This document shows positions 3,711 to 12,483 of a DNA stretch of 57,322 bases, one piece after another; position 1 is the first letter of the stretch, and each line of letters begins with the position of its first letter. The stretch is taken from IMG/VR virus record IMGVR_UViG_3300046028_008890, positions 1-57,322 of that record, one strand, 5' to 3'. This DNA is from a virus (lineage: Duplodnaviria; Caudoviricetes). The position numbers were made by a program, and so were the translations under genes. The notes under the pieces were generated by a model that saw nothing but the letters and a program-made list of their open reading frames with translations, did no database searches and had not been told where the DNA came from.

Positions 3711-4109
3711 ATGGCTACAAGATCTTACATCGGAGTTAGAAACACAGATGCTTCAGTTGATTATATTTACTGCCACTTTGATGGCTACCCAGAGCACAAC
3801 GGACAGATCCTAACGGAGCATTATAATAATCCTAACCGAGTAAATGAATTAATGAAGCTGGGTGATTTGAGTGTGTTGGGAAAATTTATTGGTGAAAAAC
3901 AGGATTTCGATAAGCGAATTAAAGATAATTGTTTAGCATACGGTAGAGATAGGGGTGAATCGAATGTGGGAGTGAAAAATACCAGCTATGATAAATTGAT
4001 TGTCGATCAAAGTGTTGATTATGTTTATATTTTCGACGGTGATTATTGGGAGTGCCACAGCACATATACTCCAGAATTAATTAATTTATATGATAAAGCA
4101 GACGCTTAA
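3711..4109 (+). CDS. conserved phage hypothetical protein (MATRS..YCHxDGYP family)
   Basis: Start moved to 3711 after the promoter; YCHFDGYPEHNG motif. Confidence 0.8.
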   Translation: MATRSYIGVRNTDASVDYIYCHFDGYPEHNGQILTEHYNNPNRVNELMKLGDLSVLGKFIGEKQDFDKRIKDNCLAYGRDRGESNVGVKNTSYDKLIVDQSVDYVYIFDGDYWECHSTYTPELINLYDKADA

Positions 4110-4142
4110 AGATAGTTCATACTTTTAATTTTTAATGATTAC

Positions 4143-4170
4143 GCCCTGGGTTTCTACCCGGGGCTTTTTT
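4143..4170 (+). terminator. rho-independent terminator
   Basis: GCCCTGGG-tttcta-CCCGGGGC followed by T6. Confidence 0.85.
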
Positions 4171-4214
4171 ACATGGGCAAAATTAAACACGTATATTTAT
4201 CAAAATTAAAACAT

Positions 4215-4478
4215 ATGACAATAAAAGATTTGATTGAACAATTAAGTAAATTTAATCCAGAAACAGAAGTATTAGGTATGTGTACTGACCCTACAGATTA
4301 CACCTACAAAGTACCTATTAAGTCAATTATACTAGATGACCCTTATGATTCAAATGGTTATTCAGGTGTAGATGGTTCTGAAGTAGATTGGGTAGAGTGT
4401 TATAATGAAGATGAAGAAACAGGTGAAGAAACTTATATTGGTCCTAAGGTTGTATTATTAAATTTAGGTGATGTATAA
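4215..4478 (+). CDS. hypothetical early protein, paralog of 5698-5889
   Basis: MTIKDLIEQLSKFNPETEVLG; start after the promoter. Confidence 0.8.
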   Translation: MTIKDLIEQLSKFNPETEVLGMCTDPTDYTYKVPIKSIILDDPYDSNGYSGVDGSEVDWVECYNEDEETGEETYIGPKVVLLNLGDV

Positions 4479-4534
4479 AAACATCACTTTTTTTTGTCAC
4501 AATTATTTATATATATTTAATCAAATTAAAAATT

Positions 4535-4705
4535 ATGAGTGATAAATTAACATTAGAACAAAACGAACGTTTAAATGAATTAGAATCTGTGTTAAAAGTT
4601 TTTTTATATGATGTAGATTATTTGAGAGAATTTGGTGAAGATGAAGAAACAGATGTTAATTCTTTGTTTGATGATGTGTTTGATAGAATTAGAGAATTAA
4701 ATTGA
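4535..4705 (+). CDS. acidic hypothetical protein (56 aa, not in ORF track)
   Basis: MSDKLTLEQNERLNELES...; promoter at 4496. Confidence 0.75.
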   Translation: MSDKLTLEQNERLNELESVLKVFLYDVDYLREFGEDEETDVNSLFDDVFDRIRELN

Positions 4706-4751
4706 TTTTTTTGTCACAACTATTTACGTACATTTATCAAAATTAAAACAT

Positions 4752-4940
4752 ATGAAATATTTAGTAATTGAATTTTTTGGAAATGATAATTATTTTACTA
4801 CAAATGGTTGTACAATTGATGAATTAGTAGAGGAAATGTATGGCGGTAGAGAAGAATTTAATTTAGAAGAAGCTAAGAAATCATTTTTTGAAAATTATGA
4901 TGTATTTGAGATTAGAGGTGAGTTGGTAAAGATAAATTAG
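4752..4940 (+). CDS. acidic hypothetical early protein
   Basis: ORF with own promoter. Confidence 0.8.
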   Translation: MKYLVIEFFGNDNYFTTNGCTIDELVEEMYGGREEFNLEEAKKSFFENYDVFEIRGELVKIN

Positions 4941-4957
4941 TTTTTTTATATCAGGTG

Positions 4958-4986
4958 AATGTGGGTGGTCAGAAATGATCACCCAT
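4958..4986 (+). repeat. left copy of 29-bp hairpin direct repeat; terminator-like
   Basis: aatgTGGGTGGTCA-gaaa-TGATCACCCAt followed by a T run; 27/29 identical to 6954-6982. Confidence 0.9.
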
Positions 4987-5072
4987 TTTTTTAATATTAT
5001 CTTAACATAATTAATTTAAAATATATTTGTTTTGTTATAATTAATTTATTATATTTATATAAATTAATAATT

Positions 5073-5315
5073 ATGATTAAAATTTATTGTATTGATGATG
5101 ATGGTGATTTAGTTAGAGATTATAAGGTTAGTAGTGATTTGTTGATGGAGAGATTTGTATTAAGTGAGGGTGATGTAAGTGAGATAATGAGTGAGATAGG
5201 AATTTATAGTGTAGAGGATGATGTGGAGATGTTTAGAGTGGATAGTGTGGAGGATATTGATTTGGATATGTGGTTAAATAGGGTAGGTATTGATTTTGAG
5301 TTGAGGAGGAGGTGA
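5073..5315 (+). CDS. acidic hypothetical protein, C-less gene
   Basis: Intact ORF with promoter; no Ala/Pro/Thr/His/Gln. Confidence 0.8.
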   Translation: MIKIYCIDDDGDLVRDYKVSSDLLMERFVLSEGDVSEIMSEIGIYSVEDDVEMFRVDSVEDIDLDMWLNRVGIDFELRRR

Positions 5316-5382
5316 TGGATAAAAAAATAAATTAGTTTAATTGTGATTAATGATGTATATTTGTATAAATAAATTATTAATT

Positions 5383-5637
5383 ATGAGTATAGAATTAAAA
5401 TTGAATGAATTAGATGAAATGTTTAGTAAGTGTGGAAATGGAGTGTTTATTATGTGTATGAGTAATAGAGGGGATAAAAAGGATAGATTTAGGATTTGTA
5501 GAGAGAGTTGGAAATTAGGTAGTAGAGTGAATTGGGTGAAGTGTAAAAAAATATTGAGTTTAGAAGGTATTGAATTTGTGGAGGGTGAAAGTGGATGGGG
5601 AATGAGAATGAGTAGATGTATTGATTTTAATTATTAA
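5383..5637 (+). CDS. hypothetical protein, C-less gene
   Basis: Start moved to 5383 after the promoter; no A/P/T/H/Q. Confidence 0.8.
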   Translation: MSIELKLNELDEMFSKCGNGVFIMCMSNRGDKKDRFRICRESWKLGSRVNWVKCKKILSLEGIEFVEGESGWGMRMSRCIDFNY

Positions 5638-5697
5638 AGTAAATTAGTTTAATTAAAATTAATTATGTATATTTAGTTATAATTAAAAAATTAAAGT

Positions 5698-5889
5698 ATG
5701 AAAGTAAAAGAATTAATTAGTTTATTAAGTAAATTTAATGGTGAATTAGATGTATTAGGTGAATTTGATAGTGATGGTGATGAATTTATGGTTAAAATAG
5801 ATGTTAATAAAGTATATAAAGGTAATAATATTGATGATAGTAATTGGGATGATGATGGTAAAGAATATTGTATAATATTATTAAAATAA
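5698..5889 (+). CDS. hypothetical protein, C-less paralog of 4215-4478
   Basis: MKVKELISLLSKFNGELDVLG versus MTIKDLIEQLSKFNPETEVLG. Confidence 0.8.
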   Translation: MKVKELISLLSKFNGELDVLGEFDSDGDEFMVKIDVNKVYKGNNIDDSNWDDDGKEYCIILLK

Positions 5890-5944
5890 ATTTGTATTGT
5901 TAGAATTAATTGTGTATATTTAATTATAATTAAAAATTAAAAAT

Positions 5945-6244
5945 ATGAAATTAAATTTAAAAGATTTAAAAGAATGGATGTGGATTGAAGTATGTGAAGG
6001 TGATGATAAGATAAAGATTAGTAATAAGTATAAAAAAGTATGTGATGGAATTGGAGATGAAGAAGTAAGTGGTGGAAATTATATTTGGTATTTTTATTTG
6101 ATATTAGATAGATTAGTTGAAAAAGAAATGATAGAGTTTGAAGGTGGTGATTTTGATTGGATATATGAATTTTTAAAGGAATATAATGAGGAGAATAATT
6201 TTAATAAGTATATGGATGAATATAATTTATTAGTTATTAAATAA
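5945..6244 (+). CDS. acidic hypothetical protein, C-less gene
   Basis: Intact 99-aa ORF with promoter. Confidence 0.8.
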   Translation: MKLNLKDLKEWMWIEVCEGDDKIKISNKYKKVCDGIGDEEVSGGNYIWYFYLILDRLVEKEMIEFEGGDFDWIYEFLKEYNEENNFNKYMDEYNLLVIK

Positions 6245-6297
6245 ATTAGTTTAGTTAGAATTAATATTGTATATTTAATTAATTAAAAAATATAATT

Positions 6298-6582
6298 ATG
6301 ATTATTGAAAATTATTTAGAAAGTATGATTTATGATTTTAATTGTGGAAATGATAATGAGTATGATGAAGGAGAATTAGTAGAGTTTAGATATGAAGAAA
6401 TTGAAAAAGGAGATTTAGATAATTATGATGAAGAAGATGTAAATATGTTTTATGAAATGAGAGATTATATTAATGAAGTGAAAGAAATAAAATATAAAAA
6501 TGATGATGATGGAATAGAATATATTTTTAGTGTAGAAGAAAATGATATAGTTTGTAGATTTAAAGAAGTAATTAGGTATTAA
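6298..6582 (+). CDS. highly acidic hypothetical protein, C-less gene
   Basis: Intact 94-aa D/E-rich ORF with promoter. Confidence 0.8.
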   Translation: MIIENYLESMIYDFNCGNDNEYDEGELVEFRYEEIEKGDLDNYDEEDVNMFYEMRDYINEVKEIKYKNDDDGIEYIFSVEENDIVCRFKEVIRY

Positions 6583-6640
6583 ATAAATTAGTTTAGTTAG
6601 AATTAATAGTGTATATTTATTTAAATTAAAAATTATTATT

Positions 6641-6739
6641 ATGAATTTAATTAATTATGTTATTTTATTTACTATTTTATTTAATGTTATTTTTATTAGT
6701 ATTAGTTATAAAGTAGAATTAGATAGAAGAAAAAATTAA
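6641..6739 (+). CDS. 32-aa membrane peptide containing the island's only C (Thr11, ACT)
   Basis: MNLINYVILFTILFNVIFISISYKVELDRRKN; promoter at 6596. Confidence 0.6.
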   Translation: MNLINYVILFTILFNVIFISISYKVELDRRKN

Positions 6740-6792
6740 ATTTGTTTTGTTAGAATTAATATTGTATATTTAATTAATTAAAAAATATAATT

Positions 6793-6951
6793 ATGAATTT
6801 AAGTTTAAAGGAATTAAATGATTTGTATTATTGTGTAGGTAAGATGAGATGGTATAGTGAAGGAAGTAAAATGATAAGTAATGAAGAGTGTGAATTATTA
6901 TTAGATAGGTTAAGGGATGAAATAAATAAAGTAGTAAAAGAAGAAGAATAA
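6793..6951 (+). CDS. 52-aa hypothetical protein, C-less gene (not in ORF track)
   Basis: MNLSLKELNDLYYCVGKMRW...; promoter at 6749. Confidence 0.7.
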   Translation: MNLSLKELNDLYYCVGKMRWYSEGSKMISNEECELLLDRLRDEINKVVKEEE

Positions 6952-6953
6952 TA

Positions 6954-6982
6954 AATGTGGGTGGTCAGGAATGATCACCTAT
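6954..6982 (+). repeat. right copy of 29-bp hairpin direct repeat; overlaps the promoter of the next gene
   Basis: aatgtgggtggtcaggaatgatcacctat; GTCA-N12-TATCTTCA. Confidence 0.9.
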
Positions 6983-7011
6983 CTTCATCTAAACAATATA
7001 AATCAATTAAT

Positions 7012-7110
7012 ATGAGTATGTATTCAATTAACGTAGCTGCCTTAGTAACAATCTTAGTGAACACAGTAATACTAGTAGGTGTCTGGAGACATCAGCGCAG
7101 GCAAAAATAA
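7012..7110 (+). CDS. small membrane peptide
   Basis: 32-aa hydrophobic ORF after the promoter. Confidence 0.5.
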   Translation: MSMYSINVAALVTILVNTVILVGVWRHQRRQK

Positions 7111-7148
7111 GGTCATATATTCAGGACACAATTAAAAATTAAAACAAT

Positions 7149-7328
7149 ATGGAAAATTTAATTATTAGAACCAAGTATTTAAATGTATCATTAATTCCAG
7201 GTGTATTATTCGGAGCAATATATACCGACCAGGAAATAGGTATAGTAATAGGGCCACTAGCACTAACGATTAAACTGTATGCCTTCAACCGTAAACGTAA
7301 AGCGACACCCAATACAAATGAATTATAG
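7149..7328 (+). CDS. 59-aa hypothetical protein (not in ORF track)
   Basis: MENLIIRTKYLNVSLIPG...; promoter at 7100. Confidence 0.65.
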   Translation: MENLIIRTKYLNVSLIPGVLFGAIYTDQEIGIVIGPLALTIKLYAFNRKRKATPNTNEL

Positions 7329-7381
7329 GTGGACGGGGCAAAGCCCCGTTCATATATTCATCACATAATAAAATTAAACAT

Positions 7382-7564
7382 ATGAAACAATTTATCATTT
7401 CACTTCTAGTATCATTAATCGTATTGTATCTAGTAGTATCATTCATCAGCCTCACTCCCAATATAGCTGAATGGGGTTCGGGTGGACGTGGTGCTTATCT
7501 ATTCTTCGGAGCGTTATTTGGAGGTATAGCTTACGTTATCTATTACGAAACAAATAATAAATAG
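7382..7564 (+). CDS. small two-TM membrane protein
   Basis: Two hydrophobic helices; own promoter. Confidence 0.75.
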   Translation: MKQFIISLLVSLIVLYLVVSFISLTPNIAEWGSGGRGAYLFFGALFGGIAYVIYYETNNK

Positions 7565-7608
7565 ATGATGGGGCGAAGGCTCCACCTTACATTCACACTA
7601 TAAAATTA

Positions 7609-7869
7609 ATGAATATGAATTACATGATTAATGATCTAGCAAGTAAAGAAGTAGCAATCGCATTCGCTCAATGGACTATCCTTAACGGTATGTGGAACTC
7701 AGACCTCACATTCGATGAACAGTATGAGTGCTGGATGAAGGTACTGGATGACCAGGCGCACGATGCTAGATTGGCACATGACAGTGTGGATGATGAGGAT
7801 TATGAGGATTTCGGGGCATATATTATGGCGAGGAGGAAAATGGAAAGTGTGTTGATGTCGGGGCGCTAG
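7609..7869 (+). CDS. hypothetical protein
   Basis: ORF with own promoter. Confidence 0.7.
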   Translation: MNMNYMINDLASKEVAIAFAQWTILNGMWNSDLTFDEQYECWMKVLDDQAHDARLAHDSVDDEDYEDFGAYIMARRKMESVLMSGR

Positions 7870-8066
7870 CGATTGTTAGCGGCCCGATAGCGGTCTGATT
7901 GCGATCTGCTCCCACGCTAGCCGCGGTCCATCGACGGGGCGGGGGCGGCGTAAAAAAGGATAGGCACATTCTCAACACGCATACACCTCTACACCCCCGA
8001 CAATATATACGCATATACTAACTAATAAATCACATACTACACTATATTTATTAAAAACACACACGT

Positions 8067-8379: not shown

Positions 8380-8556
8380 ATGAATAAAAAATATATTGAG
8401 AGTACACTCATGCTAACTAAAGAGGCGTTTAACGATTATATATTAAAACAACAATCAACCCAAGCAACATCGTTTGGGTTAACGTTGGAACAGTATCAAC
8501 AAGCTATTATTGAGGGGTCTGTTGTTCAATCTTCTCCACAATCAGGCAGTTTGTAA
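8380..8556 (+). CDS. 58-aa hypothetical protein (not in ORF track)
   Basis: MNKKYIESTLMLTKEAF...; overlaps the convergent gene by 50 nt. Confidence 0.4.
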   Translation: MNKKYIESTLMLTKEAFNDYILKQQSTQATSFGLTLEQYQQAIIEGSVVQSSPQSGSL

Positions 8557-9025
8557 AATCCTTACCCAAATCCTCAATCACACGTTGCGCCGTCACCGAA
8601 TCGATGCTAAACATTTCCCTATTCTCAGCTACCCTATATTGACTCAGATGTTCATGTACTCGTTGCTCTAATATGTGTGAAGCATAACATTTAAGCGCCC
8701 AAACAGGTACCCATGGCGTTGGAACACCGGTCGCTCTATTAATATCGCGCGCACGTTTTACTGGTGTGTCGGTAGTCATCCCTATCTTCACCATACCAGG
8801 CATCGATCTATTTACTAACACATACACATATTCCATCGCACGCACACCACCCGATGAATCTATTACGGGTTCTTTTAAATAAATTATATCTTCCCATCCC
8901 TCTTTAAATCCAGGATCTGTTGTAGGCATTAATGCATAGTGAGTAGCCATATTACCCTCACCCGGCTTTAGCCGTATATAATATTGTATATCCTTAGCGG
9001 GAATGCGTATAAAATTTCCTTTCAT
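8507..9025 (-). CDS. T5orf172-like (GIY-YIG superfamily) protein
   Basis: YVYVLVN..MPGMVKIGMT..P..RA..I..ATGVPTP motif; early-type promoter on the minus strand at ~9030-9060. Confidence 0.85.
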   Translation of the reverse strand: MKGNFIRIPAKDIQYYIRLKPGEGNMATHYALMPTTDPGFKEGWEDIIYLKEPVIDSSGGVRAMEYVYVLVNRSMPGMVKIGMTTDTPVKRARDINRATGVPTPWVPVWALKCYASHILEQRVHEHLSQYRVAENREMFSIDSVTAQRVIEDLGKDFTNCLIVEKIEQQTPQ

Positions 9026-11314: not shown

Positions 11315-12483
11315 TGAGAGTAAAAGAAAATCTATCATCTGTTGTTGCTTCTATAGGTAAAAATAATTTTTCACCTGCTAAAAAGGCTCAGGTAGGTAGA
11401 GTATATGGTGTTGTTACTACTGAAAATACTCCTACTAAAGAGATGTTTGAAAAAGTAGGTGGATACAGTGGTATAGGTACTATATTTTATCTTGATTATG
11501 AACAATCTAAAAATATTATTGGAACAATAGATAATAGTTTTTTAAATACATGTAAAACAGCTAAATCTCTTTACCCACAATTCCAGTATTATCCTATATT
11601 AGGAGAGTTAGTTTTTTTAGAGGATTTACCATCACCCGTTTCTCAAATATCAAATACTTCTTCTCAAAAATATTATATAAGCTCTATTAATTTATGGAAT
11701 AACCAACAACAAAATTCCCAACCAGCAAATGATAATGCTAGCTTAGGAGTTACATTTGTTGAAAATCCAAAGATTAAGGCATTATTATCTTTTGAAGGAG
11801 ATCATATATTACAAGGTAGACAAGGAAACGCTTTAAGATTTAGTACTACTACTACGTTATATAAGAATTTAAATGAATGGAGTGATATAGGTAAAGATGA
11901 TGATCCTATTACTATATTATCAAATGGATTTGCATATGATCCTAATGAAAAATTTCATGTAGAGAAAATAAATAAAGATTTATCTTCTATCTATTTAACC
12001 TCAGCTCAAAAAATTCCTTTACAAACAGATAAAACAGGTATATTAAATAATTTAACTAATCCTTTAAATGTACCTGACTATTTCAGTGCTCAAGCTATTA
12101 TTAATAGTGATAGAGTTACTATAAATTCTAAAAAGGATGAAGTAATGATATTTGCTAAAACAAATATTGAATTAAATACCAAAAATATTATTAATTTAAA
12201 CGCAGATGAACGTGTACATTTAAATTCTAATGCTGTATTTTTAGGACCTTATACTAATGTAGCTCCTCAACCAGTATTATTAGGATATGAAACAATAAGA
12301 TTATTTCAACACCTACAAGAAACATTAACTAGACTAGCTTCATATCTATCTAGTGCTGTTAGTACTCCTGAAGGCGCTCCTATATTAGGATTAACATCCG
12401 CTGGTAGAGATTTAATGGGAGATATGAAAAGGGTATGTGATTTATTAGAAAAAATTCCTTCACAAAAAGTATTCACAGCATAA
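11314..12483 (+). CDS. putative baseplate hub/spike protein (gp5/gpV-like)
   Basis: C-terminal short beta repeats (IINSDRVTINSKKDEVMIFAKTNIELN); upstream of gp25-like gene. Confidence 0.55.
   Translation: MRVKENLSSVVASIGKNNFSPAKKAQVGRVYGVVTTENTPTKEMFEKVGGYSGIGTIFYLDYEQSKNIIGTIDNSFLNTCKTAKSLYPQFQYYPILGELVFLEDLPSPVSQISNTSSQKYYISSINLWNNQQQNSQPANDNASLGVTFVENPKIKALLSFEGDHILQGRQGNALRFSTTTTLYKNLNEWSDIGKDDDPITILSNGFAYDPNEKFHVEKINKDLSSIYLTSAQKIPLQTDKTGILNNLTNPLNVPDYFSAQAIINSDRVTINSKKDEVMIFAKTNIELNTKNIINLNADERVHLNSNAVFLGPYTNVAPQPVLLGYETIRLFQHLQETLTRLASYLSSAVSTPEGAPILGLTSAGRDLMGDMKRVCDLLEKIPSQKVFTA

Follow-up and report, generated by a model that had tools for sequence, protein, structure and literature searches.

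The closest described counterparts of the element reported here are the promoter early stem-loops (PeSLs) of T4-type phages. They are reported to combine an early promoter with a stem-loop terminator lying between or beside the promoter boxes, to stand upstream of ORFans and to mediate modular shuffling (PMC2839356, Arbiol et al. 2010; PMC4122927, Comeau et al. 2014). For phi1/RB49, the same papers report promoter and terminator activities and mini-circles from experiment (PMC2839356, PMC4122927). We analysed a stretch of 57,322 nt (the window below), which is the complete IMG/VR virus record IMGVR_UViG_3300046028_008890, with an estimated genome completeness of ~35%. It contains two copies of a 29-nt hairpin repeat, and between them lies a block of coding DNA with a single cytosine. 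The hairpin is probably the stem-loop of a PeSL-like terminator/promoter cassette, of a new, Bacteroidota-type variety.

The window encodes a T4-type terminase and a T4-type portal protein (Portal_T4, E 1.6e-66), the latter 59.8% identical to the portal of the T4-like myophage Flavobacterium phage immuto. A nucleotide search of the window against named phages gave no match. The group consists of T4-like, immuto-related lake phages, and its hosts are probably Flavobacteriia. We compared the window (G000) with three related virus records carrying a similar block (G001, G002 and G003), with the four complete genomes of the group that were examined (G004, G005, G007 and G008) and with related or matching viral and metagenome loci (L numbers). 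Scanning viral contigs with the exact hairpin core gave 7 contigs; a slightly looser metagenome scan gave 76 loci, its pattern having 18 specified bases, so that some chance matches are expected at such a collection size. Among these loci 43 exceeded 40% GC and were seemingly unrelated, and 33 were AT-rich. Both junctions between hairpin and block were spanned with 0 differences by independent lake-metagenome contigs (X10: 4200-5792 and 6767-7798; also X13, X14 and X15), so the arrangement is not an assembly artefact.

The hairpin and its proposed promoter cassette

The two copies were identical at 27 of 29 positions, with starts 1996 nt apart, and were the only ones in the 57322-nt window at up to 3 mismatches (0 in 100 dinucleotide-preserving shuffles). 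They form stems of 10-11 pairs, G-U pairs included, with GAAA and GGAA as loops; in identity, spacing, stem and loops the repeat pair was as the initial annotation of this DNA had described it. Folded as + strand RNA, the left and right copies reached -18.0 and -17.1 kcal/mol (z -3.58 and -3.70), and 0 of 200 shuffles were equally stable. The complementary strand folded more weakly (-11.8 and -9.7 kcal/mol, with 4/200 and 18/200 shuffles equally stable), which fits a role in the + strand transcript. A scan of positions 4000-8000 with Rfam 15 at E <= 1 found no match at the hairpins; one MicX match at 4070-4171 stayed below threshold (bit score 21.3, gathering score 75).

The sequences that follow the two stems differ. 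The left copy, with 11 pairs and then T7, was scored as an intrinsic terminator, as its terminator-like look had suggested. Its T-run occupies the place of the -7 box of other copies (consensus TAYMTTTAT), and the box appears to have decayed into it. A near-palindrome noted earlier after the left copy was not conserved: it differs in G003 and is absent from G001, G002 and L105. The right copy can be said to double as a promoter, as had been proposed, in the sense that a TATCTTCAT box abuts its stem and an open reading frame (ORF) begins 32 nt past the core. This box is likely the promoter of the downstream small membrane-protein ORF (ATG 7012, end 7110), and box variants TAYCTTYAT recur at right-hand copies. 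The hairpin itself holds an ATG, in frame with MWVVRNDH..., through which ORF callers extend the downstream small genes (window 6955-7110 and many related loci, such as L007:1204, L081, L064 and L072). The true starts of these genes are probably the ATG ~28 nt past the stem.

To describe the family we collected 55 distinct hairpin-like 39-mers from the window, the three related records and the 33 AT-rich metagenome loci. Nine of them stood in a generic terminator context with no box and were left out (L034 twice, L039, L041, L043, L053, L079, L083 and L097), and the 46 remaining distinct copies made up alignment A2. In 22 of the 33 AT-rich loci, and likewise in the three related records, the stem was directly followed by TAYMTTTAT, an A-rich leader and an ATG. 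Over the 46 copies the 10-bp stem was paired in 98.0% of 460 cells, compared with 19-53% in slid-register controls, and compensatory double changes affected 2 of the 10 stem pairs (5 cells), a level reached by 0 of 500 shuffles. An upstream ORF stop was detected for 40 copies, at a median of 13.5 nt before the stem, and a downstream ORF for all 46, starting at a median of 28 nt past it. The box [TC]AnnTTnA abutted the core in 43/46 copies; TA at box positions 1-2 and TT(T) at positions 5-7 were invariant or nearly so. The loop was mostly GAAA. The compensatory changes, the T-run of the left copy and the nearness of the upstream stop codon give the hairpins the resemblance to transcriptional insulators that the initial annotation had suggested.

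The exact 21-nt core was also seen as a plain terminator with a T-run in viral (L004/L006/L009, L005) and metagenome contigs (L079, L083, L093, L097); these are GC-richer (~35-39% in the metagenome loci), have unrelated flanks and represent at least two different contexts. In immuto, the small-gene array has the same layout as the cassette: GTTG, a short GC stem-loop in the spacer, TATATTTAG, an A-rich leader and an ATG. A second family of cassettes, with a stem-loop of the type GGGGC-AAAG/AAAA-GCCCC followed by CATATATTCA and an A-rich leader, precedes C-containing small genes (window 7330-7380 and 7570-7610; G004:57500-58400; G007:74800-74990) and may be a different promoter class. Within the window the promoter cassette was confined to 2.0-6.8 kb, apart from one likely spurious match at 34.5 kb.

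For Bacteroidota sigma-A promoters a -33/-7 consensus of TTTG/TANNTTTG is reported, with a weak -33 element (PMC6847099, PMC9723704). The cassette box resembles the -7 part of it and shares its TA and TT(T) positions. Promoters of the sigma-70 type were not enriched in this region (15 found, 31.3 expected). The leaders are A-rich and have no Shine-Dalgarno sequence, another likeness to sigma-A genes of Bacteroidota, and Bacteroidota-type hosts are reported to initiate translation without Shine-Dalgarno pairing (PMC6847099).

Compared with PeSLs, the cassette is likewise an intergenic repeat in the variable small-gene regions of a T4-type genome. It stands directly upstream of ORFans and joins a putative host-type early promoter to a stable stem-loop, between or next to the boxes as far as the structure goes, which could potentially end upstream transcription; and the genes between cassettes vary among close relatives. 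It differs in having a promoter of the Bacteroidota -33/-7 type instead of sigma-70, in the near-invariance of one 21-nt stem-loop across copies and phages, and in the existence of a derivative that has lost all C and the stem. Moreover, activities and mini-circles are experimental findings in phi1/RB49, whereas the present cassettes are described from sequence. With intrinsic terminators the hairpin shares a GC-containing stem of 10-11 pairs and a 4-nt loop, as well as T-runs after the left copy and after the copies in unrelated contigs. Unlike them, most phage-type copies have no pure U-tract next to the stem but the mixed A/U -7 box.

The order of parts is the stop of the upstream small gene, ~13 nt, a 10-bp hairpin with a GNRA-type loop, an abutting -7 box (TAnnTTTA), an A-rich leader and an ATG ~28 nt past the stem. 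In the DNA, the hairpin fills the ~20 nt upstream of the -7 box, the place of the promoter spacer. As RNA, it would end incoming transcripts from upstream, with the U-rich -7 box serving as terminator tail, and the same box would start transcription of the next gene. Both activities of the cassette are predicted from these sequence features.

The cytosine-free block and the hairpins around it

The window has 13.4% C overall. Its longest C-free runs are 5007-6671 and 6673-6965, and the next longest has 76 nt. The last C's on the left are at 5001 and 5006, 20 nt past the left copy, and the first C to follow the block is 6966, within the right copy's 5' arm; the earlier account of these limits was accurate, but it overlooked the lone C at 6672. 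G is elevated in place of C, and GC content is maintained. The encoded proteins are small and mostly acidic, and their 515 residues include no Ala, His, Pro or Gln and a single Thr. A PHROGs search with 10 small ORFs gave weak matches of no assigned function, and protein D (ORF letters as in Table 1) had no relative among viral contigs.

Comparison with relatives argues for selection on these genes. In every measurable ortholog pair the ratio of nonsynonymous to synonymous substitution rates (dN/dS) was below 1, at 0-0.97 with standard site counts and 0-0.71 when synonymous sites were counted in an A/G/T alphabet. Differences involving C made up 1 of 221 inside the block between the window and G003, compared with 2,014 of 4,434 (45%) outside. 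The same held for G002 (0/28 inside; 1,042/2,449 outside), L055 (2/142; 136/281) and L105 (2/135; 163/353).

Metagenomic cluster representatives numbered 47 for protein family B and 22 for family E, with identities as low as ~55%. Of these representatives, 19/47 and 19/22, respectively, have none of the five amino acids with C-requiring codons, whose share reached 5.2% at most. AlphaFold2 models predicted compact alpha/beta domains (predicted local distance difference test, pLDDT, 84.1 for B and 79.6 for E), and a Foldseek search of both models against the PDB gave 0 matches at E <= 0.001. Cys is conserved at four sites of family B (P0001-P0047), which also shares a motif EG[H/E/D]SGWG; many distant members retain the single His, and the fully C-free ones have Glu or Asp in its place.

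One gene of the block has a C-containing paralog in the window. ORF C and ORF 4173-4478 both match phrog_5861/22847 and are 72% identical in nucleotides. The C's of the latter correspond in ORF C to T (3), G (3) and A (1), and its Pro/Thr positions have become Gly, Leu, Asp or Phe. The pair is a natural recoding of a protein into a 15-letter alphabet. Replacement of C by T, G and A alike, together with the kept GC content, indicates selection and not deamination. A deamination or bisulfite-like artefact was rejected on the same two grounds and also because the ORFs are intact, dN/dS is below 1 and independent contigs agree. As judged from these sequence comparisons, the block is real, protein-coding, old and kept by selection, and selection clearly maintains the avoidance of C cassette by cassette. 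A literature search on cytosine-free phage genes found no description of such a case.

Each of the seven genes of the block has its own promoter element. The 27 nt before each box are free of C and reach only -2.2 to -4.3 kcal/mol on folding, compared with -15.1 and -18.0 for the hairpins. In fixed register these elements matched hairpin cassettes at 14-15 of 27 positions, the window mean being 8.6. The cassette inside the G001 block retains TGGTCAGAATTAAT, like a degenerate hairpin at G001:8098. In G000, G003 and L105 the cassette before gene G is a C-purged one, and in G007, L060 and L102 it is one with the hairpin. These likenesses suggest that the internal elements descend from hairpin cassettes.

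Could the hairpins instead be dedicated ends of the block, either sites at which a mobile 2-kb unit recombines or is excised, or signals that start and stop some process of C removal? The repeats do mark the block's ends, as first annotated: the same pair encloses a C-free or C-poor block in the window and five other contigs (G001, G002, G003, L055 and L105, the last two being nearly the same phage), with copy-to-copy distances of 346, 1243, 1346, 1352, 1507 and 1996 nt, and in G001 a single C-free gene lies between two exact copies in a different gene neighbourhood, as would be expected of a moved cassette. However, the two copies, as direct repeats, represent a generic intergenic cassette, which in many relatives also flanks ordinary genes, in multiple copies (L074, L091, L050, L037, L060, L031, L038, L048 and G001). 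There are 4 in L074 (around genes with 55-68 C per ~500 nt), 4 in L091, 3 in L050 and 3 in L037, and at a distance from its C-free gene G001 carries 3 further variant copies. The element is thus common largely regardless of composition and does not set the block apart as a special unit. Nor does C content obey the hairpins. In L081 the pair encloses a gene of 19.4% C that is immediately followed by one with 1 C in 279 nt; L072 has a gene of 150 nt with a single C outside the pair, upstream of its left hairpin; and in G002 the last two genes within the pair hold sparse C. Related C-free or C-poor genes largely do without the element: in G004 a gene of 219 nt with a single C has another type of stem-loop on either side, the 811-nt block of G007 (73538-74349) has this hairpin at its end but a different terminator before its start, and immuto gp143 (NC_055915.1, 68330-68686; 5 C in 357 nt, 1.4%) has no hairpin copy and is preceded by a cassette without the usual GC stem-loop. 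Homologs are graded in C (0-5% for gene G, 5.6-8.6% for gene K), which fits selection gene by gene and not a process running between two signals; toward the block, the genes of the window step down through 16.1, 13.6, 10.7, 4.2, 3.2 and 0% C. With deamination excluded by the paralog pair and the kept GC, and with no recombinase encoded beside the block, we regard dedicated ends as extremely unlikely, and the idea that the repeats start and stop the removal of C did not hold up.

Two other explanations concern the hairpin itself. It could be a selfish or gene-converting small repeat, comparable to repetitive extragenic palindromes or miniature inverted-repeat transposable elements (REP/MITE-like), that spreads into promoter spacers and has a terminator effect only secondarily. 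This would account for a core that stays near-invariant in 46 copies while flanking genes differ by 10-40% and the stem-loops of immuto and G004 vary from cassette to cassette, and for its occurrence as a plain terminator in unrelated contigs. The left copy of G002 even looks like an insertion: TTTG and the -7 box are separated there by the hairpin and a further 16 nt, compared with TTTG-N15-box in the hairpin-less promoters of the window. We nevertheless consider this improbable as the primary explanation, since there is no evident target-site duplication or transposase, random insertion would not yield so regular a placement with respect to the stop codon and the -7 box, and the compensatory stem changes argue for function. 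In addition, the exact 21-mer had 0 matches in the genomes of 185,579 species, which gives no host lead and no cellular origin. A selfish repeat is compatible with a PeSL-like cassette. If the hairpin served primarily to bind a particular protein or RNase (as an operator, a site of RNA processing or a 3'-end stability element of structure-less C-free mRNAs), this would also explain the invariance of the sequence, loop included. C-free mRNAs form no G-C pairs and would otherwise have unprotected 3' ends, and right-hand copies share a distinct 3' flank, TAYCTTCAT or CACCTTCAA. But the same element precedes ordinary structured genes, loop variants (GGAA, GGGA, AAAA and AATT) are tolerated, and neither a candidate binding protein nor an Rfam match was found, so that such a role seems very unlikely.

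The PeSL-like cassette remains the preferred explanation, and several points weigh against it. The right copy was not scored as a terminator and is followed by UAUCUUCAU instead of a canonical T-run. The cassette box ends in A/T and not in the consensus G, the host being itself inferred, and the -33 position is only TGTG-like or falls inside the stem. A plain terminator does not need a near-invariant 21-nt core, and equivalent stem-loops vary in immuto and G004; the invariance may point to a sequence-specific partner, to gene conversion or to a recent spread. Statistically, the homology of the internal elements to hairpin cassettes is modest, in that 1.1-2.8% of all window 27-mers match such cassettes as well in this low-complexity, AT-rich DNA. 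Finally, no hairpin-to-hairpin joint of the kind left by a deletion or a circle was seen in the assembled contigs of 4 lake runs, although contigs drop rare variants. Other joints listed in contigs (4258->5751, 4990->6781 and others) proved to be low-likeness or short-sided cross-matches to paralogs and related phages.

The hairpins are probably recombination substrates. The block carries genes A B C D E F G in G000, A B H E G in G003, I B J K G in G002 and J only in G001, and these differing sets fit exchange between repeated cassettes, stem-less internal ones included. Gene J lies between two exact hairpins in G001 and is internal in G002, L081 and G007. Genes G and J both occur with different cassette types in different phages. 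Among the ORFs adjoining the block there was no recombinase or transposase, and the hairpins do not have the marks of site-specific recombination sites or transposon ends. The proposal of recombination or excision ends is therefore upheld only in part: a role in recombination is plausible from the PeSL analogy and the shuffling of cassettes, but no recombinase is near and the cassette is not specific to the block.

The simplest reading of the bracketing is that it is a by-product. A G-C stem needs C, so a run of C-free cassettes has no internal terminators, and with no internal stems the nearest intact cassettes on either side frame the block. Each gene of the block would have kept the promoter part of its cassette and given up every C, and the stem with them. 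For transcripts of all seven internal promoters the only place to end would be the next intact cassette, the right copy, and the left copy would insulate the block from upstream transcription. The hairpins may thus insulate the block and help to shuffle it, neither defining nor creating it.

Possible causes of cytosine avoidance

Immuto, the closest cultured relative, encodes FolE, QueD, QueE, QueC, QueF and DpdA. Its DNA is reported to be without dG, which is fully replaced by fdPreQ1, and DpdA3 is reported to modify the whole genome (PMC10516641). A DpdA-like protein (33-36% identical to that of immuto), QueC, QueD and FolE were encoded in all 4 complete genomes (G004, G005, G007 and G008), and G007 unites the 7-deazaguanine pathway, hairpin cassettes and a C-free block. 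GroEL relatives of the group included L114 (92% identity), with QueC and FolE, and L115 (86%), with QueD, DpdA, QueC and FolE. At least one pathway match was found in 31 of 80 GroEL-based loci, many of which lack the upstream flank. A tblastn search of G000-G003 and L031-L106 with the six immuto pathway proteins found none, which is uninformative because these records do not extend to the stretch before GroEL that holds the genes; the sequence of G002, for one, opens with GroEL, a little downstream of the place of the pathway genes in immuto. A search of G000-G003 for PF01702 (tRNA-guanine transglycosylase, TGT) gave 0/4, which is equally uninformative because the DpdA-like protein of the group gets no Pfam match. 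Beside the QueD/DpdA/QueC/FolE cluster of G007 (L205) lie an ART-PolyVal ADP-ribosyltransferase gene and a dCTP-deaminase-like gene (4514-4900 and 11703-12239).

A C-free coding strand has a G-free template strand, and in such phages the template of the block would bear no modified base. It is possible, if doubtful, that the block is a guanine-free template stretch in a phage that has a 7-deazaguanine derivative in place of its guanines. Defence glycosylases are reported in a preprint to excise 7-deazaguanine-type bases and nick the DNA, with cleavage scaling with modification density (bioRxiv 10.1101/2025.10.29.685425). If the template explanation were true, the template of the block would escape nicking by such glycosylases, and an unadapted host RNA polymerase would read ordinary DNA there. 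A few small early proteins, possibly counter-defence factors, would still be made in the first minutes. The hairpin cassettes would be the only places that tolerate template guanines, a terminator needing G-C pairs, and would for that reason mark the block's ends. Ugi of the uracil-DNA phage PBS2 is an early-expressed inhibitor in a phage with an unusual base. The present case differs from such early inhibitors in that the pathway is one of guanine modification and the base missing on the template would be the modified one.

Other genomes weigh against modified guanine as the cause. CP220, reported to be fully dADG-substituted, has no C- or G-depleted window of 200 or 300 nt, and its longest C-free run is 78 nt (~76 expected). 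G005 and G008 have the pathway and no C-free block, and QueF was not found in the complete lake genomes. As a general rule, then, CP220, G005 and G008 count against it. Causes at the RNA level are not separable from the template explanation by sequence alone, and there are several candidates. Among them are escape from C-requiring RNases and a maximal lack of mRNA structure in a host that starts translation with no Shine-Dalgarno pairing. Viperin-type defences make ddhCTP, a C-directed chain terminator, and escape from such terminators is another candidate. So is escape from Rho, which is reported to load on unstructured RNA with a C>G bias (PMC12360218).

Features of the window and biological meaning

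The features are collected in Table 1. All large ORFs of the window are on the + strand except one (8507-9025, - strand), 1.5 kb downstream of the block, which has a T5orf172/MUG113 domain (E 3e-15), a domain frequent in mobile nuclease-like genes. A tRNA scan of the window found none. In related phages a large sugar-nucleotide and glycosyltransferase cluster has a conserved position (6.7-24 kb in G002, L021-L022; 49-60 kb in immuto); its members in G002 and immuto include a DegT aminotransferase, dehydratases, a C-methyltransferase, a TPP enzyme and an HMGL-like protein.

Table 1. Coordinates of the hairpins, promoter cassettes and C-free genes in the window.
Feature	Position	Strand	Remarks
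Promoter cassette with a different strong stem-loop (-19 kcal/mol) in the spacer	2283-2317, box 2310	+	same cassette type
Two hairpin-less copies of the promoter cassette	4489-4755, boxes 4512 and 4729	+	precede C-poor ORFs 4535-4705 (4.2% C) and 4752-4940 (3.2% C)
Left hairpin copy, 29 nt	4958-4986 (core 4963-4983)	+	stem-loop, predicted to act as terminator after ORF 4752-4940; terminator-scored
T-run	4987-4995	+	directly 3' of left stem, at the -7 box place of other copies
C-free block	5007-6965 (1959 nt, one C at 6672)	+	seven promoter and ORF cassettes, no stable stem-loop
First C-purged promoter cassette	5023-5058 (27-nt element and -7 box TATATTTAT 5050-5058)	+	precedes ORF 5073-5315
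ORF A, 80 aa, 0 C	5073-5315	+	dN/dS 0.29-0.94 against orthologs
ORF B, 84 aa, 0 C, Cys-rich	5383-5637 (homolog-shared ATG; longest ORF from 5350)	+	-7 box 5356
ORF C, 63 aa, 0 C	5698-5889	+	-7 box 5668; ortholog in G007
ORF D, 99 aa, 0 C	5945-6244	+	-7 box 5915
ORF E, 94 aa, 0 C, very acidic	6298-6582	+	-7 box 6270; identical protein in G003
ORF F, 32 aa, hydrophobic	6641-6739	+	-7 box 6612; sole C (6672, Thr codon)
ORF G, 52 aa, 0 C	6793-6951	+	-7 box 6765; last before right hairpin
Right hairpin copy, 29 nt	6954-6982 (core 6959-6979)	+	sole stable stem-loop downstream of the seven block promoters
-7-type box TATCTTCAT	6980-6988	+	abuts right stem; ORF start 32 nt past core

If the hairpin is the stem-loop of a PeSL-like cassette, the principle of insulating, shufflable small early genes would extend from T4-type phages of enterobacteria and Vibrio to Bacteroidota-type promoters in lake phages. 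The combination of stem-loop, TAnnTTTA and A-rich leader would then be a sequence handle for early genes in uncultured relatives. The unusual object, however, is the block and not the hairpin. Through more than 10% sequence divergence, one nucleotide has stayed excluded from a whole set of genes, promoters and leaders included. The encoded proteins are built of 15 amino acids and yet are predicted to form compact domains, and the terminator stems between the genes appear to have been sacrificed to this selection. It is a strong natural constraint without an established cause. The link to guanine-modifying phages makes one candidate cause testable in immuto, whose gp143 offers a cultured, tractable model for why these phages avoid C.

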